A stretch of 64,000 nt of DNA from Octopus vulgaris. Lineage: Eukaryota. The stretch lies in the NCBI GenBank assembly GCA_951406725.2, contig OX597828.1, forward strand, positions 57,784,001 through 57,848,000. Reading direction: 5' to 3'. Each line of letters starts with the position of its first letter. Within the stretch, counting starts at the first letter, position 1. The translations under genes and the position numbers were made by a program. A model generated the notes under the pieces. That model had not been told where the DNA came from. It made no database searches and saw nothing but the letters and a program-made list of their open reading frames with translations. Positions 15,521 through 62,440 of this stretch are shown here, one piece after another.

Positions 15521-15725
15521 ATTAAGACTGTGAACTGCTTCAAATCATTATATGTAATGGTGGAGACAAGGTGAAGTGTTTTCACACAGCAACACACGTT
15601 TACAAAAATTATGTCGAATGTATTGTGCTTCTACAGTTTGCAACAGTAAATAGGAACTTTATGTGGCACAGTAGAAATATTTATCGGAACACAGTTCTAT
15701 ATTTAAGAGATGAGAAATTATGAAC

Positions 15726-15883
15726 ATTATTTACGTTATTTACAATTGACGGATATTTGTCCTCATCTTGTTTGTGGTTAACACAACGTTTCGGCTGATA
15801 TACCCTCCAGCCTTCATGAGGTGTCTTGGGAAAATTTCGAACCTGGGTTCTCAATCCTAAGGTACTTTAGGATGTTGTTGTTG

Positions 15884-15928
<45 letters not shown>

Positions 15929-16039
15929 TTACTGCCTGGAATCGAACTCGGATTCTTGGAGTCTGTAGTCCGCGCTCTTAATCACTACGCCATATACCCG
16001 TGGGCCAAATATCCGTCAATTGTAAATAATGTAAATAAT
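15726..16039 (-). mobile_element. Short non-autonomous Penelope-type element: tRNA head + (AAT)n + hammerhead, with 34-bp inverted termini
   Basis: Inverted termini 15726-15759 / 16006-16039 (one mismatch); tRNA-like A/B boxes at 15927-15999; HHR motif at 15781-15824; homologous to 43320-43540. Confidence 0.75.
15781..15824 (-). ncRNA. Minimal type I hammerhead motif with mutated core (CUCAUGA)
   Basis: ACAC-CUCAUGA-A-GGCUG..CAGCC-GAAA-CG-UU^GUGU. Confidence 0.65.
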
Positions 16040-22382: not shown

Positions 22383-22402
22383 CAAATGTGTGTAACTGAC
22401 AG

Positions 22403-23235
22403 TTGTGTTCTGAACATGTTTGGAAGTGGTCAAACGATTGGGACCTGTGTCTGAACGTGTCAAAGTGCTGTCATCTGCCTGTCGGCTCTACTCCTGCAAC
22501 TCAACTTGATTTCGAGCCGGGTCGTCTGCTGCTGGAGAGGACCGATCAGGTAAAGGACCTGGGTATCTTGGTGGATTCCTCCTTTTCGCCTTCGGCCCAG
22601 TGCGTCCATGCTGCCAACAAAGCACGCGGAATTCTGTTCTTGATTCGACGGTCATTCGGAATGCTCACAGCAGCCATATTCCTGCCACTCTATGTCACAC
22701 TGTTGAGACCCATATTGGAGTATGGGATTCAAGCCTCTTCTCCTTATCTCCTCAAAGACATACAGCATCTCGAAAGAGTCCAGAAGCTGGCTACCCGCAT
22801 GGTTCATGGTCTCAAAAATTTGTCCTACGAAGAAAGGCTGAGGACGCTCGACCTTTATTTTCTTGAAAAACGCCGCCGCCGTAGTGATCTCATTCTCGCC
22901 CACAACATCATAAGCGGAAAGTGTAACCTCTCGAAAGAGCTGTTCTTCACTCCTGCTCCAGAGCGTCGGCTGCGGGGTCATTCCGAAAAGCTCTACCTGC
23001 GACGATTTCATCTCAATCGAAGGAGAGAAGCTTTCTCCGTCCGGGTTGCGGATCCGTGGAACAAACTGCCAGACGAGATGGTAAAGATGCCGACGACCGC
23101 TGTGTTCAAAGCCTCTCTGGACCTCAAGTGGCCTGAACTCTTTATATGAACACCACCCTGTACTTAACTCCATGTCCCCCTACATGGCCTTGCTATTTGC
23201 TTTTGAGCCAAATTAACTAACTAACTAACTAACTA
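22403..23235 (+). mobile_element. CR1-type LINE, 5'-truncated (ORF2 C-terminus + 3'UTR + (TAAC)n tail)
   Basis: Open frame 22403-23149 with VKDLGILVD, YVTLLRPILEY, LERVQKLATRMV, LSYEERL, FSVRVADPWNKLP; TAAC tandem tail. Confidence 0.9.
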
Positions 23236-27774: not shown

Positions 27775-28000
27775 TTTGAGGGAATAAAATCCAAACTTAC
27801 AAGGAAAAAAATTCTATTGAGAAATACTAAATACAAATTATATACTTTTTTATTATTATTTTTTTGAAATTTACTTAATCATTGACATTTTATTGTTATT
27901 TTAATTTTGATATTTCTATTAAATGTAATTTTCTAGATGGCGTAATTTAATTGTTCATTTTGACTTGATAAAAGGTGGGGTTTTTTCTAAATATATTTAT

Positions 28001-29105
28001 AGTGAAGGGTGTTCCGCAAGGCACTGTTTTGGGACCACTACTGTTCATAATGGCCCTCTCAGACATGCCCTCAGCCATGCAGAGAACCACGATCACAAGT
28101 TATGCAGATGATACAAAAGTTTCACAGGCAATACAGAACCCTGAAGACACTGATCACCTGCAATGTGAGCTGGACAAAATATACAAGTGGGCTGAAAAGA
28201 ATAGCATGCAGTTCAATGCTGAAAAGTTTCAAGCTTTATGCTATCAGCATGCAAAACTAAATGCAATACCCAATAAATACACTGGACCTGGAGGGATTGC
28301 AATCCCAGAGGCACAATCAGTGCGAGACCTGGGTATTTACATAAGTGATGATGCAACCTTTCATGTGCATGTTGCTAAATTGGCAATGAAATGTAGGCGG
28401 ATGACCAGATGGATTCTTAGAACCTTTAGAACAAGAGAACAATAAACCATGATGGTCCTCTGGAGGACACTTGTCCTAAGCCACTTTGACTATTGCTCTC
28501 AGCTATGGTCACCATCCAGTGTCAAGTTAATCACAGAACTTGAGGCGATCCAACGAAGCTACACGAAGAAGATAGCCTCTGTGCAGCATATAAGCTATTG
28601 GGAAAGACTCAAGAGATTTAGACTCTATTCCTTACAGCGTAGGCGAGAAAGATATGCCATAATATACATCTGGAAGATCCTAGAAGGACTTGTCCCAAAT
28701 TTTGGCACCGAGAGTTACACAAATGCCAGAACTGGGCGCCATTGCATAGTGCCAAGGACTCCAAATTTGCCATCAAGATGTAGGACAAGATACTGTGATA
28801 GCCTGGGCTTCCGAGGCCCACAGCTCTTCAATATCCTCCCGAAGAACCTAATAGACCTGCATGGGGTGGATGCAGATGTCTTTAAAATAAAACTGGATCC
28901 CTCCTTGTCAGGTGTCCCAGATGAACCAACTTCACGGCAGGAGGTGCAGATGAGGACAGCTGCATCGAACTCTCTCATGCACCAAATGGCAATTGCTAAA
29001 AAGCATTCGTGAAGTAAAATCATGTAGCAACACCAAATGGCGGTGCCCCAGCATGGCCACAGCTTGTGAGCTGAAACTAGATAAAAATAAAAAATAAAAT
29101 AAAAT
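28001..29105 (+). mobile_element. CR1/L2-group LINE, 5'-truncated, RT C-terminal half with one premature stop
   Basis: GVPQGTVLGPLLF, YADDTK, VRDLGI, DYCSQLWSP, SYWERL, YSLQRRRERY; TAA at 28443-28445; 3'UTR stem-loop and (AAAAT)n tail. Confidence 0.92.
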
Positions 29106-29868: not shown

Positions 29869-30239
29869 TGTATAATATAGAAAGAAGAATCAAAGTTAGG
29901 CAAATCACGTTCACATATACATTTATCTTTATTCAGCCCTAAACCCAACATGCATGGATTTCTCTAAAAGTATATTTAATACATCAAACATATTTAAAAT
30001 ATATGGATACATAGAAATATATAAAATATATAGAAAAAAATTTAATGCATGTTGGGTCTAGGGTTGAATAAATCTAAATATATCTGTGAATTTGATTTGA
30101 CAAATTCTGATTCTTAGTTCTACACTATTCTAACGCCTCAGGTTTGAATATCTTAAGCACTTCAAAATGAAGTCTATGCATTAGATAAAATATTTTTTCT
30201 CATAATCATACACACACGCACACACATACACACATATAC

Positions 30240-30292
<53 letters not shown>

Positions 30293-30427
30293 TATTAATA
30301 AAAAGAATTCCAACCTTGTCTGATTTTCACGTTTTATTTACAATCTTATAATGATATATTATAAGATAATATATTATAATTGAATAAAATAAAATGAAAT
30401 AGTAGAATGTTAAATATTCATTCTGAT

Positions 30428-30472
30428 TGAACTAGTACTTTCATGCATTGAATTCTGCAATCTTCGGGTTCA
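30428..30472 (-). ncRNA. Variant minimal hammerhead in the left inverted pLTR
   Basis: Mirror of 35101-35145. Confidence 0.7.
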
Positions 30473-31061
30473 TGTAGTAGTGTTGACAGTCATGCTTCAC
30501 AATTTTTGACTGTAGCAAGATGAGTGATTCTGTGCTATAAATACAGCTGGGTAGGCTCCAGAGTGCTAGGTTTTGCAAACTGTATTCTGACCAATCAGTG
30601 TGTAGTATCACTCAATTACTTAAGCTGATTGGTTGGTTGAGCTGATTGGTTTAGGCATCATGCTTTGTTGGACAGGTCAAGAGTCCTGTATCTTGACCCT
30701 GGCCGAAGCAGCAATTGTTGGGTTATTTTTAGAAATGTTGTAAATATCCTTTGTCAGAGATTTTTATATTTTTATATATTTCAATTGTCATCATCATCAT
30801 TGTCAGCACCTTAATTATTGTTGCTAGTGGTGATGGTGGTGGCAATAGAACTTTTAACCCTAAATAAGATGATTTTCCTGCTATCTTCGTCTTGATCACC
30901 TTTAGTATTGTTGTTGTTGTTAGTGGTCATGGTCGTAGCAGTGGAAGTAATACCTCTAAGTATTATTATTATTGCTTATTTAGCTTGGGTTCGAATTTAT
31001 CAATAAAATTCTTTTCTCTGATTTTCCTCTCGATTTCACTTGGGCTGTGTAATTTGTAGAA

Positions 31062-32354
31062 TTGTCTGGAAAGCAACAAACAAAATTAACAGAATCCGAA
31101 AGAATTCTAATGGAAATTTCATCGAAATTATCAACACTCATCACGATGATTGACACACAATCCTCTATTTTAAAGGAAATAGAAAAACAGTCTACAGACG
31201 GAAAACTTGGAAATGAACACATAAACTCTGAAATTAAGAATTTAGCTGAAATGATACCAACAATTATAAAATCTACAAGAGAAAGCCTACCACAACCTCC
31301 TTGGATGTCAGAAATAAACGAAAGAAATCTGGAAAAAGAAGCACACCGAAAAAGAGAAGAGATACAGAAGACATGGAAAAAACTCCTTAACATAAGAAAA
31401 CAAAACTTCTGGAAGGCATATAAATGCGAAAAATATGCTGAAATACATTCGAAATGGATATCTTTAGCGGCACCCATACTTCCTCGGAAGTACCTAATTA
31501 AAGAAATTGCAGGAGAACCAGAGGAAGAAACTGAACTTCGATGGGACCTTAGTTTGATAAAATTCAGGACCGACATCTCCATTACCCTGTCTAAACAATC
31601 CCGCTACAAAGCCAAATACGAAGCTATCGATGATCAAATCAGAGATGAAATATCCAAACTAACGACCGGCAATATAGCAGAAAAAATGCGAGAACTATGG
31701 ATCAGAGATATCTCAAAAGAAGAAAGCAGATCAAGAAAGTTTTGGCAGCGGAAACAATTATTTCTCGACAAATATGCTACAAATTACGGTAAAGACACCA
31801 GAACTCCGAGAAATAGCATTAAAAGTGGACAACCTCACCAACGCAACATACACCAGAACACGTGGCAACATGAACACCCGTTTCACCACGAATCGAAGAC
31901 GAACTACGGTAAGAACTCTTCCCATTTTGTATGCAAACACCCTAATGCACACAACATGAACAAAAAGCACAAACAAAATAGATATTGTTTTGAACAAACC
32001 ATTAGCAGTAGAAATAACAGGAGATCATTTTCAAGACCTCAACAGAGATTACCCACAAGAAACTGGACAAAAAACCGATCTAGATCTAGAAGTAAACCCA
32101 GATCATTTCTCCAGGTGGTTAAAAACAATGCTAACAAGAAATTGAAAAGTAGCATACATAATACCAAAAACAAGACAGAAAACATAACGAAACCAAGTAA
32201 AGTACCACAACCAAAACGCAAAATTCATCAAGCAAACATCAACAGGAATATAAATCATAACCAGAAAAAAATCCATTTTTTTACGTCAGGACAACAAACA
32301 CCGGAGAAAGAAAAAATCCAAGAGGAAACATACCCCAAACAACTGAACGTATAG
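31062..32354 (+). CDS. Penelope upstream ORF / N-terminal region: coiled-coil-like, then basic low-complexity segment; probably 5'-truncated at the inversion junction
   Basis: 430 open codons inside the element; RSRSRSKPRS basic tract; overlaps the RT frame by ~94 nt. Confidence 0.7.
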   Translation: MSGKQQTKLTESERILMEISSKLSTLITMIDTQSSILKEIEKQSTDGKLGNEHINSEIKNLAEMIPTIIKSTRESLPQPPWMSEINERNLEKEAHRKREEIQKTWKKLLNIRKQNFWKAYKCEKYAEIHSKWISLAAPILPRKYLIKEIAGEPEEETELRWDLSLIKFRTDISITLSKQSRYKAKYEAIDDQIRDEISKLTTGNIAEKMRELWIRDISKEESRSRKFWQRKQLFLDKYATNYGKDTRTPRNSIKSGQPHQRNIHQNTWQHEHPFHHESKTNYGKNSSHFVCKHPNAHNMNKKHKQNRYCFEQTISSRNNRRSFSRPQQRLPTRNWTKNRSRSRSKPRSFLQVVKNNANKKLKSSIHNTKNKTENITKPSKVPQPKRKIHQANINRNINHNQKKIHFFTSGQQTPEKEKIQEETYPKQLNV

Positions 32355-34588
32355 ATCCTAAAATAATTAATTTATCAAAAAGAGATCTTGACAATGATGA
32401 AATCCAACTTCTGTCAAAAGGACTGAAATTCACACCTACACCAACAGCCAACCACCAAGAATTAAAGGAGGATATCCAAAAATTCTGTCGAAAATTACGA
32501 CTTGTAGAATTCTTCGCTAACAAAAGTAATGAGATTGATGAATCCCTAGTAAGGAATAAATCAAATTTCACCCCACCAAAAGGAAGAAATAACTACCTTG
32601 ACCAATACATTGATATCCTGTCTAAATTTCCCCTTAGACGCAATACCAATGTTAGGCCAAACATTAGCAAATCAGAGATGTCTGCATGTAAACGTATACA
32701 AAACGATCAAACAATAATAATTAAACAAGCAGATAAAGGTGGTGCAATTGTTATTATGGATACCGAATACTATAAGGATTTGGTTGAAGACCAACTGAAG
32801 GATACAACCTTCTATTGTGAAATACCCGCAAATATAGACCACCACATCATGAAAAAGATCAACAACCTGATTTCAACACACCACAACTCACTTACGGATA
32901 ATGAAAAAGACTACATCACCAATTTTGAACCAAAACCCAGCAACTTATACGGCTTACCAAAAATACACAAATCAAAAAACATTCAACAGGCAGTAAAAGA
33001 ACAAGAAAGTGAGTACATAAAATTATTACATCAAAAAGACCTAAAACTTAGACCTATTATAGCTGGTCCAGCATGCCCTACACACCGTCTAAGCAATTTT
33101 ATTGACATTGTTTTGAAACCACTATGTACTTACATACCAAGTTTCATCAGGGATGACATCGACTTCCTGTCCCATCTTCCCAAAACAACAGAAACAAATT
33201 CAGTTTTGCTAAGTTTTGATGTGGTAAGCCTCTACACCAATATTCCACACGATTTAGGAATAAAGGCGATTAAATACTGGTTAGAAAAACATAGAGAAGT
33301 GATTCCCAGCAGATTCACAGTGCCATTTATATTAGACACAGTCAAACTTATTCTAGAAAATAACACATTCTTCTTCAATGGAAAGAATTACATCCAAATT
33401 AGAGGCACGGCGATGGGAACGAGGTTTGCTCCCGTTTACGCCAACTCTGTAATGGGATACTTAGAAGAACAACTCTACCAAGAGGTGGAGGTAAACTATG
33501 GCACTGGATTTAGAAAGTATATTGAAAAGGCATGGAAGAGATACCTAGACGACTGTTTCATAATCTGGACAGAATCTCTAAATACTCTGGAAGAGTTCAA
33601 TATCCTCCTGAACAACCTACACCCATCTCTCAAATTTACAAAGGAGATGAGTAGTACCAAATTACCATTCCTGGATATAATGGTAATTAAAAAAGACACC
33701 ACCATCACCACAGATATATACTATAAACACACAGACACACATCAATACCTAAATTTTAAGTCGTGCCATCCACCACATACAAAACGTAACATCCCATACT
33801 GCCTAGCCAGAAGAATTTGTACTATTGTAGAAGATGCAAATATCAGGAACAAACGCCTAATAGAACTAAGAGAATTTTTGCTCAAACAAAAATACCCATC
33901 TCTACTTATAGAAAATGGCATACAGCGGGCTATAAAAATACCTATACAACAACTTAGGACAACCCAAGGAAGAGGAAAACAAGAACAAGTCATACCATTC
34001 ATAGTGACACACAACCCATGTCACCAGAATATCTTCAACATTGCCAAAGCAAACCTTCCAATCATTGCCCAAAGTAATGAATTAAAAGACATAATCAAGG
34101 ATCGAGCTATGGTGCTTAGTAAAAGACAGCCTAAAAACTTGAAAACATTACTAACAAAGGCAAAATTTGACCTCAGCAACAAAGACCAAACATTCACGGT
34201 ATCTAAATGCAATGATAACCGATGTGGCACATGCCAATTCATACATACCGGTCAATATATAAACACAAAAACCGGGAAAATATTCACAAACGCGAATATG
34301 AACTGCAAAAGCAGAAATTTAATTTACTGCATCAAATGCCCAAATTGTGAAGAAATATATGTAGGTCAGACGGGAAACGCACTATTAGAACGCTCACGTG
34401 TACACCGGCAACAGATTAGAGACCCAGAGGTCCGTCAGATACCTTTGAGTAACCACCTAGCAACATGTGGTCGGAAAATATATATAATATTTCCATTCTA
34501 CAAATTACACAGCCCAAGTGAAATCGAGAGGAAAATCAGAGAAAAGAATTTTATTGATAAATTCGAACCCAAGCTAAATAAGCAATAA
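32261..34588 (+). CDS. Penelope-like reverse transcriptase + GIY-YIG endonuclease
   Basis: Frame is open from 32261 (first ATG 32678): IINLS..LSKGLKFTPTP, ADKGGAIVIMD, YGLPKIHK, LRPII, SFDVVSLYTNIP, GTAMGTRFAP, RYLDDCF, LPFLD, CNDNRCGTC linker, NLIYCIKCPNCEEIYVGQT..R...H. Confidence 0.95.
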   Translation, partial: PEKNPFFYVRTTNTGERKNPRGNIPQTTERIDPKIINLSKRDLDNDEIQLLSKGLKFTPTPTANHQELKEDIQKFCRKLRLVEFFANKSNEIDESLVRNKSNFTPPKGRNNYLDQYIDILSKFPLRRNTNVRPNISKSEMSACKRIQNDQTIIIKQADKGGAIVIMDTEYYKDLVEDQLKDTTFYCEIPANIDHHIMKKINNLISTHHNSLTDNEKDYITNFEPKPSNLYGLPKIHKSKNIQQAVKEQESEYIKLLHQKDLKLRPIIAGPACPTHRLSNFIDIVLKPLCTYIPSFIRDDIDFLSHLPKTTETNSVLLSFDVVSLYTNIPHDLGIKAIKYWLEKHREVIPSRFTVPFILDTVKLILENNTFFFNGKNYIQIRGTAMGTRFAPVYANSVMGYLEEQLYQEVEVNYGTGFRKYIEKAWKRYLDDCFIIWTESLNTLEEFNILLNNLHPSLKFTKEMSSTKLPFLDIMVIKKDTTITTDIYYKHTDTHQYLNFKSCHPPHTKRNIPYCLARRICTIVEDANIRNKRLIELREFLLKQKYPSLLIENGIQRAIKIPIQQLRTTQGRGKQEQVIPFIVTHNPCHQNIFNIAKANLPIIAQSNELKDIIKDRAMVLSKRQPKNLKTLLTKAKFDLSNKDQTFTVSKCNDNRCGTCQFIHTGQYINTKTGKIFTNANMNCKSRNLIYCIKCPNCEEIYVGQTGNALLERSRVHRQQIRDPEVRQIPLSNHLATCGRKIYIIFPFYKLHSPSEIERKIREKNFIDKFEPKLNKQ

Positions 34589-34906
34589 TAATAATACTTA
34601 GAGGTATTACTTCCACTGCTACGACCATGACCACTAACAACAACAACAATACTAAAGGTGATCAAGACGAAGATAGCAGGAAAATTATCTTATTTAGGGT
34701 TAAAAGTTCTATTGCCACCACCATCACCACTAGCAACAATAATTAAGGTGCTGACAATGATGATGATGACAATTGAAAATATAAAAATATAAAAATCTCT
34801 GACAAAGGATATTTACAACATTTCTAAAAATAACCCAACAATTGCTGCTTCGGCCAGGGTCAAGATACAGGACTCTTGACCTGTCCAACAAAGCGTGATG
34901 CCTAAA

Positions 34907-35060
34907 CCAATCAGCTCAACCAACCAATCAGCTCAACCAACCAATCAGCTTAAGTAATTGAGTGATACTACACACTGATTGGTCAGAATACAGTTTGCAA
35001 AACCTAGCACTCTGGAGCCTACCCAGCTGTATTTATAGCACAGAATCACTCATCTTGCTA
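34907..35060 (+). promoter_or_regulatory. Putative Pol II promoter in the pLTR (CCAAT x3 at 17-bp period, TATA-like box)
   Basis: CCAATCAGCT at 34907, 34924 and 34941; reverse CCAAT near 34978; TATTTATA at 35030-35037, ~65 nt before the HHR. Confidence 0.45.
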
Positions 35061-35100
35061 CAGTCAAAAATTGTGAAGCATGACTGTCAACACTACTACA

Positions 35101-35145
35101 TGAACCCGAAGATTGCAGAATTCAATGCATGAAAGTACTAGTTCA
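35101..35145 (+). ncRNA. Variant minimal type I hammerhead in the Penelope pLTR
   Basis: UGAAC-CCGAAGA-U UGCA gaauucaa UGCA U-GAAA-GUAC-UA^GUUCA. Confidence 0.7.
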
Positions 35146-40088: not shown

Positions 40089-41629
40089 TACATGTATACC
40101 AATGAAACGAAGAAGAAAAAGAAAATTATTTAAGGCATCCTTAGCACTACCTCCTCCAGGCATTTGATGTAGCCTTCCATGTTTCGTATGAGGCCTTGTG
40201 GGAAGAGGAATGGGGGCATGACTAGTGATCACTCCAAACACCATAATACTGACTAGATCTTTGATTTTTATAACTCTCGGTACAAGTCCTCAGATTGCAC
40301 TATCCTTAGATTGACATCCAAATACTCTGAAATATTCGTATTGGTGCAGTACAGCATGTCATTGCCAAAGTCCTGGCATAATGAATCGCGTTATGGTGCT
40401 GAAATTTCTCACAGACGGTGCCCAAATGACCCTACTATACTGTGTAGTGGATAAAATCAAAAATATACAATGTGCATGCGTGAAATTAGAAATATAAAAT
40501 GGCAACAATTTATGCATCGTACACCATATATATATATATGTTTGCGTGTGTGTGTATGTGTGTGTGTGTGTATGTGTGTGTGTGTGTGTGTGTTAGGCTA
40601 TTATTCGCAAGACGTTATATAAAATGAACGACTAACAATTTCCACTTCAATCAACCATTCTCTACGCCGAACAATATTTTATTTTGACTCCCAGGAAATT
40701 TAATGTGTGATGTGGAAAGACCGAAGTGCAAACTACAATATTATCTAACTCTTGACTCTTCCATCTCCATTGATTTTTCAATATTTTATAACCCACAAAG
40801 CTGACGAGTTTCCAAAGAAATCAAATTATTTCACTTCCAATTCAGTCTGTCCCGAAATTCTCCTTACAATATCTTGTACATAAATCACCCCCCCCCCAGA
40901 CAGATTCTTCCTATACTTATCAATTCCATGCATTAGAAAGTTCAGTCTCAGATACTTCGGGAATCTGTAATAGTGCTTCCCACTACGCGTCCTGCCGTTG
41001 CCAAGTCACATAGCCTCAAACAGATTAATCTGAATGCACTACAGCATACATAAAACATTCATACACCAATATATGCACTTAGACCCATACCTGCTTATGT
41101 CAACTTATAAATCAACTTTTCTTCACGCCTGTTTTTATTGATTTATTAATTTGTTCGTTTTGAACAGATTTCGCAAGCAGATCCTCCGCTAATTTCCACT
41201 TCTAAATTTCTACTTACTGAAGACGATAAAACTTAACGTCTTATGAGTGTTTGTACAAAGCAGAGAGAAGTGGTGGTGGTGGTAGTGGTGGTGGTGGTAG
41301 TGGTGGTGGTGGTGGTGGTACAGGGAACAAGAATGGATGACAGTAAATTTACTTCAATAAATTAGATGCAAAACAAAGCAAGAATCTGTGGTGATAATTG
41401 AAACATTAAAGTTTCAGAATTATTGACATTGAAAATATTTTTTTTTTATTTCCAGCTGACGGTGGCGAAATGTGCAAATTTGTTGCCACAAAGAATGTAT
41501 TTAGTGCTAGCTACACGTACTAGGTTTAAGAGTTCATTTAAGGTTTCATTGACGTATGTCGCTTCTTGTTGACGTTGTTTGTATTATCATGACCAACTAC
41601 TTGATTAACGGTAGAGAAAACCTGATTAA

Positions 41630-41862
41630 GGCTGCGAGCTGGCAGAAATGTTACACGCCGGGCGAAATACGTAGCCGTATTTCGTCTGACGTTACGTTGT
41701 GAGTTCAAATTCCGCCGAGGTCGACTTTGCCTTTCATCCTTTCGGGGTCAATGAAATAAGTACCAGTTGCGTACTGGGGTCGATGTAATCGACTTAATCC
41801 GTTTGTCTGTCCTTGTTTGTCCCCTCTGTGTTTAGCCCCTTGTGGGTAGTAAAGAAATAGGT
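41630..41862 (+). mobile_element. SINE family A, full length
   Basis: Family sequence; TSD GAGAAAACCTGA(T/C)TA. Confidence 0.9.
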
Positions 41863-42265
41863 TGAGAAAACCTGACTACTGATAACTTTTTTAAAAGAAC
41901 AGACGTCGACTACACTACTAACCATGTGGACAACTAATCGACCAATCAAAAACCGAATAGTACTCTTATCAATTTTGTGATTATCATTCCATTTCATTAT
42001 TTGAGCGTCACTGACAAGTAATTCGACTTTTAATCAGCCGAGAATTCGACTGATATCAACAGTACGATACCTTTAGGTACGATGAAATTATTCAGTTTAC
42101 CAAGAGAAAATCACATTTGTGTTTAAGTGTGCGTAAGCATGCGTTTGCGACTCTGTGTGTGTATGTGTGTGTTCGCGCGCGCGTTTGCGTGTGTGTGTGC
42201 GTGTGCACGTGTATGTGAATGATGTGTATGCGTGTGTGTCTGTGTTTGTGTGAACAGTTGTATGC

Positions 42266-42667
42266 GTTTGACCGGCAGTTTTTTGAAATAATTTCCACGT
42301 AACTAAACACTTTTAAACTTCGTATACTGGTAGAATGTGTTTATAAAATATCTTTTTCTCTTGGCTTTATTGAAAAAGTTCTATAGTTTGTAAGATATTT
42401 GTTGTTGTTTTTTTCTTCAATTTCTGCAATTTCAACCAATAATTGACGTCTATTGAGGTGAAAACATTCTGTGCCGTATGAATATGTCCCTCGTTTAAGA
42501 AACAGATTGGGTTTATTTACATTAGTGAAGAAAAAAAAGATACCCTCCCCCCACCCCTAACTCTAAAACAGATTGAAATGCAATAGATCGATACTAGGGT
42601 CATAATTATGGGTGACAATTTCATATGACACCGCTAGAAAAAACTGCCGTTCAAACCGAAAAGATCC
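42266..42667. mobile_element. MITE-like element with (sub)terminal inverted repeats
   Basis: GTTTGACCGGCAGTTTTTT / AAAAAACTGCCGTTCAAAC. Confidence 0.55.
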
Positions 42668-43319
42668 AGCAGTTGTGCTGTTTCTTTAAGAGCGCTTCTT
42701 ACATTACTGCGCCTCATTAGTTAAATTGTCCGTCTTCACCAGGTTGCTATACGCAAGTAGGATATAGTATGGAGCTGTGTAGTGAATTCCATTTTATGGT
42801 AAGAGGTTATAAAATTTGCCGCTATGTTTCTTTTGGTAGAAACCAAGTAACCAGCACTCCTATCACAGTCATGGTGGACTTTATTCTTATTATGGTCTTC
42901 ATGATGAAGAGTATCATCATCGAAATAACCAGCGTCTTCGTCTCATTAGAATTTTTAATGTTGTCCTGCCTCCCGTTCTTATTGATTCTGTTGCCTGTTG
43001 TCATGCTGAGAAGCTTCACGAAGAATGTCAACGAAGATATTCTTCTAATTACTTCTCAACCTGCAACATAGAAATAAACGAAAGCAAGAAGAATCAAAAA
43101 AATATGATACATTACTAATCATATCATATTGAAAAAAGACTGACAATGCAAATAACACAGTTCAATAAAAACAAATCATATTCTTCATCAAACTTACAAC
43201 TTTCTTCGATAGTCATTTTCATTTAGGAATTATTTCTTCATGTCACAAATTTTTCATTCATCACGTAAACAACAGAGCATTGTCCTCTCATCATAATTAT
43301 TATATTTCCACCCAAATAT

Positions 43320-43772
43320 TATTTTTATATAAATTTGATGGATATTTGTCTTCATCTTTATTGTTAACACAACGTTTCGGCTGATATATCCTCCACCCAT
43401 GGGGAAATTTCGAACCTAGGTTCTCATTCGTAAGGTATTTTTCGATTATTATAATTATTCAGGTCACTACCTGTAATCGAACTCGAAATCCTGGGATTAG
43501 TAGCCGGCGCTATTGACCAGTACATCATATGCCCGTGGGCAATTATGGAGTGAATTTTAGGGCTTATAAATCTAATATTTTTCTATCCTTCCTTAATACC
43601 GGTTCCCATATGTTATTTATATCTGCACTCGGTCTGCTTAGGAGGTTGTTGTGTCCTAGCATATGTACTGCTTCTGTTGGTTTTTCTATTTTCCAGTGGT
43701 GTTCTCTGTCTATTTTTTAACTTCATCCCACAGGGGGAGGTGGTCTCCATTTTTCCATACGTGATCAGCTGT
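43320..43772 (-). mobile_element. Penelope/Poseidon-type 3' end: GIY-YIG C-terminus + tRNA-like head + HHR remnant
   Basis: Minus strand ADHVWKNGDHLPLWDEVK / DREHHWKIEKPTEAVHMLGHNNLLSRPSADINNIWEPVL..* (one frameshift; stop at 43564-43566); tRNA head 43462-43534; CAGCCGAAACGUUGUGU near 43367-43383. Confidence 0.78.
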
Positions 43773-43799
43773 GACACGAGGAGACATTGATAAATCGGG

Positions 43800-45970
43800 T
43801 ATAGCCGAGGTCAACTTTGCCTTTGATTCTTTAGGGGTCGATAAAATAAGTACTCGTTGAACACTCGATGTATTAGACTCATCCCCTCCCCCAAAATTGC
43901 TTGTGGCAAAATTTGAAACCACTATTCTTGTTATTATTATTATTATTGTTGTTGTTGTTATTCTTATTGTTGTTATTCTTATTATTATTATTACTATAGA
44001 CGTCGCACAGTATACAATATCGTGAGGTTGTTGATTGAAGATATTGTGGCAGAATCGATAGGACACCGGGCAAATTGCTTAGTGGCATTTCCTATGTCCT
44101 AACGTTCTGTGTTCAAATTCCGCTGAGGTCGAATTTACTTTTTATCCTTTCGGGGTTGATAAAATAATTACCAGTTGAGTGCTGGTGTCGATGTAAGCGA
44201 CTTATCCCCTCCCCCGAAATTTCAAACCATGTGTCTATCAAGAAAAGATTATCATGGGAGTGATTGATAAACCGATGAGCCAACAGAACGGGTAGCACGC
44301 TGCCCTAAATTCTTAGCGATATTTCATATGGATTTACGTTCAGATTTTAAATCCTTATTGTTGAATTGGTGGATAAGACGGTGAGCTGGAAGAACCGTTA
44401 GCACGTTGGACAAAATGCTTTGCGGCATTTCGTCCGACTTTATGTTCTGAGTTCATATTCCGCCAAGGTTAACTTTACTTCTCATTCGCTTCGAGTCGAT
44501 GAAATAAGTACCAGTTGAGTACTGGGGTTCAATGTAATCGATTTGATCCCTCAATCAAAATTCCAGACCTTGTGTCTATGCAAGAAAAGATTATCACAGG
44601 CATGGTAGATAAAATGACGAGCTAGCAGAGCGGTTAGCACGCTGCACCAAATACTTAGCGACAATTCATTGGGCTTTACGTTCATATTTCAAATCCCGCC
44701 GTGGTCGACTTTCATCCTTTCGGAGTCGATGAAATAAGTACCAGTCATGTACTGTGGTCGACATAATCGACTTCGCCAACCCCTCAAAAACTGTTTAGCC
44801 TGTACCAAATGTTTATTATTATTATGAAAGTTATGGATAAACAGAAGAGTTAGAACCCCGAATAAATGCATTGCGTCTTTTCCTCCGGCTAAAACCTCAC
44901 CGAGACCAAGTTTGTCTTTCATTCTTTCGGAGTCGATAAAATAAAGCACCAGGGTATCGACTCACATCCACTACCTTAAAAAAAAAATGCTGGCTTAGTA
45001 CCAAGACTAAAAACAAAGGCAGTAATCCGACAGAATTGTAACCGCGTTGGACAAAATATTGCTTTCAAATTTTGGCACAATACCAGCCGTCTTGGGGTAG
45101 GGCTTCAGTCGATTACATTGACCCCATTACTCAACTGATACTTATTGTATCGAGCCTGAAAAGATGTAAGGCAAAATCGGCCAGGGCGGAATTTGAACTC
45201 AGAACGTAAAAATGGACTCTGCTAGTGCTCTGTCTTCGCTCTGAACAAAATATTAAGCAGTATTTCTTCCTGCTCTTTATGTATTGTGTATGCCATCGCG
45301 GTCAATTTTGTCTTTCGTATTTTCCGGGTCAATAAAATGAGTAATCAAATTGCCCCTTTCCACAAAACTGCAGGCCTTGTGCTAAAATTAGAAAGAGTCA
45401 TGATTAAAGGTCACGAGCTGGCAGGATTGTTAGCGAATCAAAGGCGACGAGCTGGCAGAAGCGTTAACACGCCAGGCGAAATGCTTACCGGTATTTCGTC
45501 TGCCGTTACGTTCTGAGTTCAAATTCCGCCGAGGTCGACTTTGCCTTTCATCCTTTCGGGGTCGATAAATTAAGTACCAGTTACGCACTGGTGTCGATAT
45601 AATCGACTTAATCGGTTTGTCTGTCCTTGTTTGTCCTCTCTGTGTTTAGCCCCTTGTGGGTAGTAAAGAAATAGGTATTTCGTCTCCCGTTACGTTCTGA
45701 GTTCAAATTCCCCCGAGGCTGACTTTGCCTTTCATCCTTTCGAGATCGATAAATTAAGTACCAGTTACGCACTGAGGTCGATGTAATCGAGTTAATCCGT
45801 TTGTCTGTCGTTTGTCCCCTCTATGTTTAGCCCGTTGTGGGCAATAAAGAAATAAGTATTGTTTGCGCATCGGGCAAAATGATTTGTGTATTCCCTCCTG
45901 TGTTCCTTACGTTGTGAGTTCAAATCCCACCAAAGTCAAATTTGCATTTTCCTGTTTTTGGTGTCGATAT
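43800..45970 (+). mobile_element. Dense array of about ten family A SINE copies, mostly in the same orientation
   Basis: Repeated family A heads and bodies; young tandem pair at 45442-45674 and 45675-45856; one minus copy near 45070-45210. Confidence 0.85.
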
Positions 45971-46690
45971 AGCCGAGTCTATAACGGAAAAGAAAAAAAA
46001 AAGCACTAGTCTTGTCACAAAATTCGAAACCGTTAGTTTTATGATATCCATCGTTATTGCCATTACTGTTTCTGGTATTGCTACTATTTAGCAGTTTCTC
46101 TCCCGCCCCCCGCTCCTCTCCGCTACTTGCAACATCTTAAGCACACACGCCGCTCCTACTTCCATCATCAATAGCTTCGTTGCCACAATTCTTGTACAAT
46201 TCACTATCAACTTTGTTTAGTTGCCATTTTCTGTTTAAAGTTTTTATTACGTTTTGTTTCCAAAAAAAAAACAAACATATAAAAAAAATATTCATGTTTT
46301 CACAGATTTTGATTTACTTTTAAATGTAATTTCATGCTCCAGCTCCTGAAACACGTATCTTCCCTGCAGGCATTTAGACCAAATCATAAACACACCAACA
46401 TATAAATATATAAGTAGACATGTTCACATGAAGAAATGAAAACAAATCACATGATAAACATGCAAAATTACAAAATCTAAACGAAAAGAATCTGCTAAGA
46501 AAAACAGTTCTGCGGTGTTGGATACTTCAATAATTTATTGGTGGAAGTGAGAAATTTATATCAGCTTCTCTCTCTCTTTAAGTATATTTCTCTATCTGTC
46601 TGTCTTTCTTTCCTACTTCTATCAGGAGCATAGCTACAGTCTTTGCCTCATTGCTTTACTTGACACTATGTATACATATATATACATGTA

Positions 46691-46905
46691 AGGCGGCGAG
46701 CTGACAGAAACGTTAGCACGCCGGGCGAAATGCGTAGTCGCATTTCGTCTGGCATTACGTTCTGAGTTCAAATTCTGCCGAGGTCTTTACCTTTCATCCT
46801 TTCGGGGTCGATAAATTAAGAACCAGTTACGCACTGGGGTCGTTGTAATCGACTTAATCCGTTTGTCCCCTCTGTGTTTAGCCCCCTGTGAGTAGTAAAG
46901 AAATA
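46691..46905 (+). mobile_element. SINE family A
   Basis: Family sequence flanked by an ACTATGTATACAT duplication. Confidence 0.88.
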
Positions 46906-47419
46906 ACTATGTATACATGTATGTGTGTGTGCGTTTATTTATACATATTTATTTATTTATTTATATATATTATTTGTTATTTATGTATTGGTTTATGTCT
47001 ATCACTGTTTGAGTTGCATCAAAGTGGTTTTATCTCTAATTCATATTTCATATATTTATACTGTAAAATTTGATTTAATACTAAATTGAATTTTTCCCTG
47101 TAAGTTTGGAGTTATACTCCCTAATATTATTATTATTATATATATATATATGGGGGTTATGTGTGTATATATGTTTGTGGTATATATATGTGTGTATAAC
47201 TAATATATATGCATATATGTGTATACGACGTCACCAATCGTAAGGAACATGAAATACGAAAACAAATGAGTTAAATACTCAAATAACGAGAGAGAAAATG
47301 GAAAACAAAAATGTAATATGGGTACAGCAAGGGTTAATAACAAGTATATAAAGTACTCTAACATGCTTATGACCAGTTCAAATATGCCAGAAGTATAGGG
47401 GTCCTCACCTTGCATGTCG

Positions 47420-47735
47420 TTTCAACAACGTTTTGGATGATGTTCTGTTCAGCCTTCATCCGGTGTTTTGGTGGAATTTCGAACCCAGCCTTTTGACTAA
47501 TAGGGTGGCCTATACTCATTCCTAAGGCATTCTTTTGGGGTTGATTATATTTTTGGCGATATTTCCCAAGCCCCTGCCTGGGATTGAACTCAGATTCTGG
47601 GGATTAGTAGCCCGCACTCTTATCCACTACGTTATATGCCCATAGGCATTTAGCGTAGTGCCTACGGGCATATAGCGTAGTGATTAAGAGCACGGGCTGC
47701 TCACCCTCGGATTCTAAGTTCAATCCCAGGCAGAG
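47420..47735. mobile_element. Related tRNA-head/HHR element (minus, 47420-47647) with an inverted tRNA head (plus, 47660-47733)
   Basis: GGGCATATA(A/G)CGTAGTG..GTTCAATCCCAGGCAG heads on both strands; degenerate HHR ACAC-CGGAUGA-AGGCUG..AAAACGUUGU. Confidence 0.65.
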
Positions 47736-47752
47736 ATCTATATATCTATATA

Positions 47753-59678: not shown

Positions 59679-62440
59679 GCTTTTGTTGTGATGGAGTCGC
59701 ACAAGTTCGATCCCGGACGGCAGAGTTGATTGAGAGCAACGCGACACTCGCGGTGCCATTCGCCTAGCCTCGGTCTCTGCTTGATCCATGACTGTAGTTC
59801 GTCCAAGGAGACGAGCTGCGGGAAAGCGCGCCGCACAAAAGGCGATCACACCTGTTCACCGTTGTCTATGAAGCGCCGGAGATGTGGCAGTCTCAGCGCA
59901 TGTCTGCGCATCATCAACCACGGCATGCCCAGCCCTCCATTTAGCGGGTGTTGACAGCAAATGGATCGCCTAACCATCGGAACGTTTCCCTTCCACAAGA
60001 AGCGGAAGAGTATACGTTCCAGTTTGGTGATGGTAGGGTCGGGACAAGGCACGACGGTCAGACGATACTCGATGACGGATGCGATGTACGCGTTCGCCAC
60101 CTCCGCCCGACCTTTTAGGGATAGCTTTCTCTCAGCCCATTTCTGGGTGAGAGTAGCCACCCTAGTCGTTATCTCGCCCCAGTTCTTCTCCATTTGGAGG
60201 TCCGGACCGAACCAGACCCCGAGCAATTTAACCGGTCCGTCCGTCCAGCGTCCCACTATGGAGACGCTGTTGGACGGCATGGGCTTGCTTCTCCAGGTGC
60301 CGAGCCGCAAGCTCACTGACTTTTCCCGGTTAATTTTTGCTCCCGTTACCGCTTCGTATTCTTTTAGTGTCTCGCCGACCAGTTCGATGTGCTCGTAGCT
60401 CGACACTATGACGGTGACGTCATCCGCGTATGCAGACACGCTCCTCCCGCATCCCAGCTCTCGTGGGATGCCCCTCAGCGTCGCCAGTTTCCGCAGTAGT
60501 GGCTCAAGAGTCAGTACATACAGCAGCGATGAGAGGGGGCATCCCTGACGAACCGAACGCATGATGTTAAAAGGTCTGGATAGATGACCATTTACGCGAA
60601 CTACTGAGCGGATGCCGCTGTATAAGGCAGCGATCCAACCGCGGAAAACTGGACCGAAACCAGCCGCTTTAAGGACAGCCTCCAAGTAGTGATGGTCTAC
60701 CCTATCGAAGGTTTTTGATTGATCCAAATTGATCAGCGCCCCACCCATGCCAGGATTCTTAACTACCCTGTCTATGATGTAGCGCATCAGATGGAGGTTG
60801 TCATGAATACTTCTACCCGGCACGGCGCATGTTTGCGCCTTGTCGATTAGTTTCTTGATGACAAGCGCCAACCTCTCGGCTAACACCTTGGCCAAAATTT
60901 TCAAATCTGCGTTGAGCAGAGTGATGGGCCTGAAATTATCTATGACGTCCCCCTTGTTTGGGTCTTTCTTAATCAGTGCCACTGCTCCTCGCTTTACAAA
61001 AGCAGGAATACTCCCGTTTTGCTGCCAATTGCAGTAGACAGCTGCCAAGACGCCTCCAAACAAGTCTGGCATATGAAAATAAAGTTCGTAGGGCAGACCA
61101 TCCAAGCCTGGTGACTTGTCTCTCGCGCAGCCTACCATCGCATCCTGTACGTCCGCAGCTGTGATAGGCCTTTCACAAGACTCCACTTCTCTTGCTGAGA
61201 GTCGTGGCAAGGCATGCAGGTAGGCACTAAAGTCCACTCTGCGTTCTGACTCACCACTTGTCCCAAACAGTTGGGTGAAGTGTTGTTGAAAAGCCCCACA
61301 CATCCTTTTAGGCTCGAGCAATTCGCGCCCCTGTTCATCTATAAGAGACTTGATGGTGGCTCTGTTGCCTCGTTGCGTCTCCACCACTCGGGCCTCTTGG
61401 GCGGCTCCAACTCCTTCGTTCCTCAGAGCACGCATCCTGGCTCTGACAACGCATCCCTCGTGTTTGGCGTTGAGGTGTTGGTCGAGGGCCAATCTCGCCG
61501 CCAGCACGTTGGACGCGATGCCAGTTCTAAGTGCCTCTTCTAAAACCTTAACTAATTCTCCCTCTATTCTATTTCGGTCTAATGCTAGGGCTCTACTGTA
61601 TCTGACTGATTCTGCTTTAATTGCTTTTTTAGGGCATACCACCATCTGTTGTTGATGATGGTACCCGTCAAAGCTCTCTTAACTAATGTGCTGATCCGGT
61701 CCCTGTAAACCTGTCGTGCTGTAAAAGACGCGTTCAGTTTCCAGTAACCAGGACCCTGCCTATGTGTCTTATCTAAGTCAAGTGTACAAGTCACAAACTT
61801 GTGATCTGTGTAACTGACTATATGAAATTGTGGACAACCTACACTATTTTTATCTATTGTCCTACAGAATACTCTATCTAAGTATGATCTGGACGACCCG
61901 ATGCGGTTACTCCATGTCCACATTGGCACATTCGGGTGGTCCAGTCGGTACCTGTCAGACAGTTGGAAATGTCTGAGCAGGTCTTTGAGGCATTTGCATC
62001 CCCTTCTATTGCTATCTCTGCCCACGTAGTCTAGATGCGTGTCCAGGGTGGCATTCCAATCCCCCACTAAAAGTAAAGGACGAGACGTTCCCATGAAAGA
62101 CTCTAGACGTCGAAAGAAATCTGGTCGGCCTGTTAAGGACGGAGCATAAACTGCTATCAGTCGAAAAGCACACTCATTGCTGCCATCGACATCCAAAACG
62201 ACCAGCCTACCCTCCGGGTCTAGGAAATTTGCTCTTACTTTGAGATCCAGACTCTTCCGGATAAGCACCGCTTATGTTGAAATGTGTACCGAAAATGTGC
62301 TGGAGTGCCCGCAAGCTGTGGAGTCTGGTCTCACTGATGGCTATGATATTCAGATTTAGTGACTTGATGTCATTTAACAGGTAGCCTTGTTTCCAAGGCG
62401 ACCCCAAACCACGTACATTTATACTGCCTATTCTGAGCAT
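59679..62440 (-). pseudogene. Tx1-type ORF2 (APE endonuclease + RT), frameshifted
   Basis: GSINVRGL, IAISETR, VGDWNA, WTW, SYLDRVF, TDHKFV, GYWKLN; SPGLDGLPYELY, FRPITLLNADLKILAK, VRQGCPLS, AYADDV; frameshifts near 62270 and 61630. Confidence 0.92.

Follow-up and report, generated by a model that had tools for sequence, protein, structure and literature searches.

Endonuclease-bearing (EN+) Penelope-like elements (PLEs) of the Penelope/Poseidon type have a single open reading frame (ORF) for a reverse transcriptase (RT) and a C-terminal endonuclease, pseudo-long terminal repeats (pLTRs) in partial tandem, inverted 5' pieces and a minimal hammerhead ribozyme (PMC8557442, PMC4209133). The PLE promoters described are of the RNA polymerase II (Pol II) type and overlap an intron (PMC2377424; PMC8557442). 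Here we analyze an Octopus vulgaris family that shares the features of this type and has 37-66% amino acid identity to its members, including barnacle, sea urchin and lizard records. Unlike them, its pLTR opens with a tRNA-derived head carrying the A and B boxes of an RNA polymerase III (Pol III) promoter, and its unit is free of Pol III terminators; such boxes are present in 0/29 relatives. The family is represented on the minus strand at 43320-43772 of the window, the whole 64,000-nt stretch that was analyzed (contig OX597828.1 of assembly GCA_951406725.2, positions 57,784,001 to 57,848,000; coordinates below are those of the window). Judged from the organization of its copies, Pol III probably makes the full-length RNA of the element, including the 2.5-kb ORF, by means of the tRNA-derived cassette.

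R2 is a retroelement with coding capacity that is not transcribed by Pol II, and it has a ribozyme close to its 5' end (reference titles in PMC13725137). The octopus element resembles it in both respects, the Pol III part being proposed; R2 borrows the rDNA promoter, whereas the octopus element would carry a Pol III promoter of its own. The R2 RNA is a Pol I co-transcript freed by a hepatitis delta virus (HDV)-like ribozyme. In the Schistosoma SM-alpha and Sj-alpha repeats a Pol III promoter is followed by a hammerhead (PMC6765202, a review), but these are non-coding tandem repeats similar to short interspersed elements (SINEs), whereas the octopus arrangement forms the terminal repeat of an autonomous coding element. 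The TRIMp3 elements Cassandra, Helenus and Ajax contain a small-RNA-derived Pol III promoter inside their terminal repeat. They are long terminal repeat (LTR) elements of 0.3-1.3 kb that are non-autonomous, and their autonomous partners are said to have to use Pol II owing to the weak processivity of Pol III (PMC10886601, 2024); in octopus, the autonomous element itself carries the promoter. Like tRNA-derived SINEs, the solo copies in octopus consist of a head and body of 300 nt, with a 3' end common to the autonomous element. Non-LTR retrozymes were proposed to be non-autonomous pLTR derivatives (bioRxiv 10.64898/2026.07.22.740005), and a term search of that preprint finds no mention of tRNA, polymerase III or promoter. 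The octopus copies differ from SINEs and retrozymes in that no target-site duplication (TSD) is seen, inversions are of the PLE type and the head is common to the autonomous partner. No report of a PLE with a tRNA-derived promoter was found in the literature; Repbase, Dfam and subscription journals, where the family may already have an entry, lay outside the search.

The window copy has decayed and is truncated at its 5' end; the family to which it belongs, of the Penelope/Poseidon type, is abundant. A first-pass annotation, made from the sequence alone, had placed an ORF end at 43564, a tRNA-like head at 43534-43462, an AAT tract and a hammerhead remnant within 43320-43772. This layout is real and its coordinates are right. 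The copy consists of the following features:

43767..43808, plus strand: inverted ORF piece capping the 5' truncation point, a PLE-type 5' inversion (42-nt match with 4 mismatches to the ORF of locus L058, just upstream of the break)
43564..43772, minus strand: C-terminus of the Penelope/Poseidon ORF (endonuclease end, last 70 codons) with one frameshift and a TAA stop ending at 43564 (197/207 nt identical to L033)
43563..43570, minus strand: TTTATAAG, a TATA-like motif that overlaps the stop codon and lies 30 to 23 nt upstream of the putative start at 43540 (also in subfamilies A and B; its role is putative)
43535..43540, minus strand: GCCCAC, the putative transcription start (G at 43540), which forms a small palindrome with GGGC and is where most ORF-less copies begin (from copy 5' ends)
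43462..43534, minus strand: tRNA-derived head with A box 43527-43517 and B box 43484-43473 (from the tRNA-Arg comparison and the box letters)
43445..43459, minus strand: AAT tract (limits approximate), variable in length in subfamily A and unexpanded in B (from copy comparison)
43425..43427, minus strand: ATG opening the ORF of the next unit, upstream of the hammerhead (from in-frame read-through in L162 and L183)
43407..43416, minus strand: GGTTCGAAAT (from sequence)
43366..43400, minus strand: remnant of a minimal type I hammerhead that is intact in many family copies; a 13-nt deletion removes the CUGAUGA core
43325..43365, minus strand: 3' part of the pLTR, ending short of the family's common end AAATATAGAACT (from copy comparison)

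The endonuclease C-terminus, recovered by tblastn as two pieces (43769-43716 and 43713-43567), ends in WEPVLRKDRKILDL followed by the stop codon, and 23 nt of linker separate this codon from GCCCAC. Both boxes of the window copy are mutated relative to the TGGCGTAGTGG and GAGTTCGATTCC of the family. Among the 13 nt missing from its hammerhead are most of CUGAUGA and, in stem I, the whole 5' strand; with this core deletion, the ribozyme of the copy is dead. ARAGORN calls no tRNA in the window, and Rfam finds neither tRNA nor hammerhead in the window copy or in the well-kept copy L168. The head has no cloverleaf fold (z 0.26), and the cloverleaf of a functional tRNA gene is found in it by neither ARAGORN nor Rfam. 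GGTTCGAAAT, kept in subfamilies A and B, is a second B-box-like motif and lies where the pLTR is coding; it may represent another TFIIIC site or just the codons V-R-N. The linker sequence CCATAATTGCCC (43541-43550, minus strand, and in the family linker) is a near-perfect inverted copy of the first bases of the head and resembles the fossil of a fold-back that took place when head and ORF were joined. An abundant SINE-like repeat is present in many copies around the element (41626-46785 and elsewhere), one of them adjoining the 5' inversion at ~43804.

The family was characterized in the 2.8-Gb genome. A search with the 453-nt query gave 6,975 first-look candidates, and the 40 that were scored match most of the query at 83-88%. 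A 23-nt head motif has 1,585 exact sites, against 0 for its reversed control. The median distance of copies from the column majority is ~6%, so the family is old. In the long copies L123, L272 and L276, a pLTR is followed directly by the ORF and then by the next pLTR; the unit reads head, AAT tract, ATG, hammerhead, ORF, stop codon, 30 nt, next head. The element measures ~2.9 kb and its ORF ~2.5 kb, or 830 codons. The encoded protein matches RVT_1, with a DKG motif in L121, L123 and L391, and has 138 homologues; the best reaches 66% identity, a cluster from barnacle 52%, and records from sea urchin and lizard about 40%. It shares 37% of its residues with the Anolis (lizard) protein P0043 of the Penelope/Poseidon type, through the endonuclease, and 24% with a Neptune-like element in the window. 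Although Pfam GIY-YIG gives no match in the family, the endonuclease region, where a GIY-YIG domain with CCHH-type residues would be expected, aligns end to end with that of P0043 (VYSIPCSCGRLYKGET versus VYRIPCSCGQVYIGTT). The linker between RT and endonuclease aligns to P0043 without insertion and thus has no extra Zn-finger, a feature that sets Neptune and Nematis apart from this clade; the Neptune ORF of the window has CxxxxCxxC there. Other EN+ PLE characters are present too: pLTRs from partial tandems, 5' truncation and inverted 5' copies. From these alignments we file the family under the Penelope/Poseidon clade. Subfamily B is 76% identical to A at the nucleotide level; its head is the same and identically placed, and its AAT tract is unexpanded. 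All 30 loci fetched with a distant protein belong to this head-bearing family, and no head-less Poseidon family was found in the same genome, so a control from the same host and clade is lacking. The family and the fold-back joints at the 5' end of its head are also present in data labelled as another organism.

The tRNA-like head is fixed in position and integral to the pLTR. With an ORF-only query, 26 of 30 loci (a set that includes the window copy and one duplicated pair) run into the head, two break in its first bases and two before it. With a distant-protein query, the head is present in 19/19 loci that reach the ORF end. Among 60 loci selected by the head, 49 continue into the pLTR body; the other 11 have no common alternative body, and 3 of these keep the first bases of the body. 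The argument of the first-pass annotation against a chance SINE insertion is thereby borne out. We looked for the signs that would speak for such an insertion, namely a tRNA segment missing from most ORF-linked copies, a TSD, or an independent tailed SINE, and saw none of them: no TSD is visible by eye in 8 copies with both ends clear, and the 60 head-selected loci contain no SINE body or tail separate from the PLE. The AAT tract was ruled out as a SINE tail; it is unexpanded in B, and the body continues beyond it in most copies.

The family's A box TGGCGTAGTGG and B box GTTCGATTC, compared with the consensus sequences of type 2 Pol III promoters, represent the commonest letters in ~130 heads and have tRNA spacing. 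Among host tRNAs, Arg(TCG) and Arg(TCT) score best against the head (41 and 40), and 200 shuffles reach at most 23. The sample comprised 35 sequences from 30 host tRNA loci and covered only seven amino acids, so the assignment of the source is provisional: the head appears closest to tRNA-Arg among the isotypes sampled. A and B boxes occur in 0/29 of the closer relatives that possess a hammerhead, so the octopus lineage appears to have gained the cassette. It had been suggested that the cassette replaced the CCAAT and TATA motifs of the Neptune element in a promoter swap. This comparison is unsupported because Neptune belongs to another, unrelated clade, as the 24% identity indicates. In the 29 hammerhead-bearing relatives, TATA (10, with 8.0 expected) and CCAAT (7, with 7.8 expected) are at chance, so these counts lend a swap from such motifs no support. 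ARAGORN with relaxed settings gave only noise in 80 metagenome loci. A three-codon upstream ORF (ATG GCG TAG) at head +6 to +14 overlaps the A box in subfamily A, and B mostly has ATA there. At locus L131 (G000:C12:25267077-25270148), seven tRNA-Cys-like genes are clustered in tandem, and the anticodons of some are altered (ACA, ACT).

Most copies of the family have no ORF, which the first-pass annotation had left unnoticed along with the absence of terminators from the ORF. Extending the head motif by 13 nt of ORF linker leaves 52 sites of the 1,585. Only 6 of the first 30 head sites (two of which look duplicated) are ORF-linked; the other 24 have inverted self-sequence upstream (14), a partial tandem (2) or other sequence (8). 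In another head-selected set, 29/30 loci are likewise not ORF-linked, and inverted self-sequence lies upstream in 29/60 head-selected loci overall. The three copies noted in the window all exist (15693-16005, 43325-43808 and ~47395-47649), but only the one at 43 kb is ORF-linked, and the 47 kb copy belongs to the diverged subfamily B:

15693..16005, minus strand: solo pLTR of subfamily A that starts at the head, with part of its own 3' end lying inverted in front of it (from copy comparison)
47395..47740, minus strand: solo pLTR of subfamily B (~47395-47649), joined head to head by an inverted head (47659-47740, plus strand; from copy comparison)

The ORF-less copies begin at approximately -7 to +1 of the first base of the head, while breaks in ORF-linked copies are scattered over 200-1,600 nt. 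In 30 loci selected by the hammerhead, the head is nearly full in 14 and partial in 5, and the break lies in the AAT tract in 11. Among 30 loci selected by the ORF start, L168 and L183 start with the head and continue into the ORF; four loci are tandems in head-to-tail order. A start at a G located 13 nt before the A box fits Pol III. With A and B boxes at tRNA spacing and, upstream of the A box, a putative start at a purine, the layout is that of a type 2 promoter; a Pol III start would give sharp 5' ends of the kind found at the head. Three raw RNA-seq runs (organism B) and one contig set (organism C) were compared with a tandem copy. The data are unstranded and silent on promoter use: reads are divided equally between the strands, depth tracks copy number, and no position can be singled out as a start site.

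Three further observations concern the copies. The AAT tract is often interrupted by another retroelement (L055, L067, L068) and may serve as a landing site for such elements; in L055 the sequence after the tract translates to ILWDMPIHTDREIKANRPDIVV, presumably an R4/Dong endonuclease end. Six of the 30 ORF-start loci (L157, L160, L164, L171, L178, L184) stop at ORF ~431-443, at TAATGTAAGT, and several of these then join pLTR sequence. All of the common 3' ends finish in TGTA, a pattern suggestive of microhomology priming; alternatively, a splice donor may be involved.

The sense strand of the element is without Pol III terminators, both T4 and interrupted T5. In L123 there is no T4 in 2,622 nt, while dinucleotide shuffles give 3.6 (P 0.018). 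As a yardstick we used the column majority over 141 loci at a depth of 14 or more (2,620 nt). It contains 396, 74, 13 and 0 T runs of length 1, 2, 3 and 4 or more, and neither T3VT2 nor T2VT3, which are the stronger ones among the non-canonical terminators that human Pol III recognizes (PMC3141230). Across 66.9 kb of natural sequence (86 segments), T3 and longer runs number 408 against 394 expected, and T4 and longer runs 24 against 74 expected; the pooled T4+ frequency is close to the 0.36 per kb expected from the decay of a T4-free master. When the codons of the family are shuffled synonymously, both signal types are absent with a probability of 0.012. Subfamily B repeats the pattern, with 0 T4 in 2,035 nt of L242 and T4 runs in L267 that are private at 3/3 testable sites.

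As controls we used 80 related elements from metagenome contigs, 33 of them T-matched and 1.2 kb or longer. T4 is present in 78/80, including 26/26 of those of at least 1.8 kb; the two without it measure 747 and 1,023 nt. Terminator signals number 37 in 41.6 kb (0.9 per kb) in 30 natural family copies versus 222 in 54.3 kb (4.1 per kb) in the 33 matched controls. Relative to the controls, T3 is depleted to 0.79, T3VT to 0.67, TVT3 to 0.41, T3VT2 to 0.26 and T2VT3 to 0.17, an order that is also the order of strength measured for human Pol III terminators (PMC3141230). In the other retroelements of the window T4 is at or above expectation, with 14 runs in the Neptune-like element (31053-34588). 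ORFs similar to long interspersed elements at 59846-62271 (minus strand), 22400-23149 (plus strand) and 27972-29012 (plus strand), which we take to be L1/Tx1-like and CR1-like, served as T-run controls.

Read-through in L162 and L183 indicates that the ATG following the AAT tract shares the frame of the ORF. Modal spacings differ by 27 nt between subfamilies A and B and by 9 nt within A, and the relatives P0008, P0124 and P0128 have the same hammerhead-encoded peptide near their N-termini. Because this ATG lies upstream of the hammerhead, the ribozyme is inside the coding frame, and a translated RNA must be uncut there or religated. The minimal PLE hammerhead has a known set of marks, and such motifs are active only as dimers (PMC4209133). 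In family copies all of these marks are present: the CUGAUGA and GAAA core with an extra nucleotide between 9 and 10.1, the G10.1-C11.1 pair, a palindromic 15.2-16.2 and stems I and II. The deletion in the window copy destroys this arrangement. Stem positions are 88% paired in the family alignment, and the stems have a stability of -13.6 kcal/mol.

Sharp 5' ends and the lack of terminators together provide new support for the use of Pol III. TFIIIC would bind the A and B boxes, and Pol III would start at GCCCAC, 13 nt before the A box. Transcription of a solo repeat would yield a 300-nt SINE-like RNA; from an upstream repeat, Pol III would read through the ORF into the downstream repeat. The RT/endonuclease of the element would copy both RNAs, mobilizing the solo RNAs in trans. 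The short palindromic 5' end (GCCC-AC-GGGC) could promote cDNA fold-back and thus the frequent head-to-head inversions. Since the minimal hammerhead would cut only as a dimer, monomeric RNAs would keep the upstream ATG, and the junction between ATG and ORF would likewise be restored in a circle produced when tandem units are cleaved and ligated. In a fuller version, to which we give an even chance, the whole life cycle has moved to Pol III. A 2.9-kb terminator-purged RNA, either linear and uncapped or circularized by the hammerhead, would be both message and template, and the same promoter would yield thousands of SINE-like solo repeats. Element and SINE would share one head because the same promoter throws off the solo repeats.

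Several points weigh against Pol III synthesis of the coding RNA, for which the case is drawn from DNA sequence. The copies descend from one or two masters, so the terminator test amounts to about one and a half independent observations, and P values within the element are modest (0.018 for the dinucleotide shuffle of L123, 0.039 for T4 alone in the synonymous shuffle). One of the 33 matched controls, L283, is equally terminator-poor in its ORF (0.43 per kb) without a tRNA head; this metagenome contig, the lowest control, has one T4 in 2,346 coding nt and a T-rich pLTR. The yardstick is also devoid of G4, with G runs at half the control level, and no motif is more depleted than the weak terminator T2VT2 (0.10), which points to a general avoidance of TT (rho TT 0.77). 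Loss of terminators concerns the retrotransposition template and not necessarily the translated message, and 12 copies contain no compensatory pairs in the hammerhead. It is possible that Pol III makes only the short solo repeats, as a Penelope-mobilized SINE, and that the coding RNA comes from Pol II, through the TATA-like motif at -30 or host read-through, the shortage of T runs in the ORF being compositional. The dominance of ORF-less copies, the low TT and G4 levels and the retention of TTTATAAG at -30 in A and B agree with this, although the motif lies across the stop codon, and this codon could by itself account for the conservation. We consider it unlikely: the cut-off in the ORF falls sharply at T4 with T3 unchanged, recurs in subfamily B, and leaves signals 4- to 5-fold below T-matched relatives.

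The 5' ends allow other explanations, since they could also be caused by the TATA-like motif or by a hairpin that spans the linker-head junction, with -6.7 to -11.6 kcal/mol in 4 copies. The head may be a passenger, an old tRNA or SINE piece in the pLTR, with the sharp ends arising where RT stops and folds back at this hairpin on a longer Pol II RNA. The absence of a tRNA fold in the head and the inverted self-sequence in 29/60 loci are in line with such an origin, but the hammerhead stems are as stable (-13.6 kcal/mol), yet truncations within the pLTR are scattered. With A and B boxes that match the consensus in both subfamilies and a terminator-free unit that it leaves unexplained, a passenger head seems improbable. 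We rate slightly lower still a role of the head as an RNA-processing or translation signal on read-through RNA made by Pol II, where it would direct an RNase P-type cut or allow initiation without a cap, and the hammerhead would help to free or circularize units. Some copies do start at +1 to +5, 4/30 ORF-start loci are head-to-tail tandems, and ribozyme cleavage can start cap-independent translation (PMC13725137). Against this, many copies keep 6 nt before +1, the loss of terminators is not accounted for, and the head is a poor substrate for an RNase P-type cut because its acceptor and T stems are unpaired.

The Neptune-like element of the window (31053-35145, plus strand) is nearly intact, with overlapping ORFs of 433 and 775 amino acids. 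An inverted partial copy (30226-31062) is 95-100% identical to it, so the element is young. Rfam gives no match in its pLTR, which is listed for comparison only:

34907..35145, plus strand: Neptune-like pLTR with three CCAAT motifs, TATTTATA at 35030 and a hammerhead-like motif with the variant core CCGAAGA at 35101-35145 (by eye)

Pol III is held to make short non-coding RNAs. If Pol III synthesis of the octopus element is true, a natural ORF of 830 codons fitted to this polymerase would break the rule that autonomous partners use Pol II only (PMC10886601). The translation of an uncapped Pol III RNA and the purpose of PLE hammerheads would become testable, and the combination of A and B boxes with a T4-free ORF would provide a simple screen for other cases. 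The family would also show a route by which a SINE can arise from the terminal repeat of its own autonomous partner.
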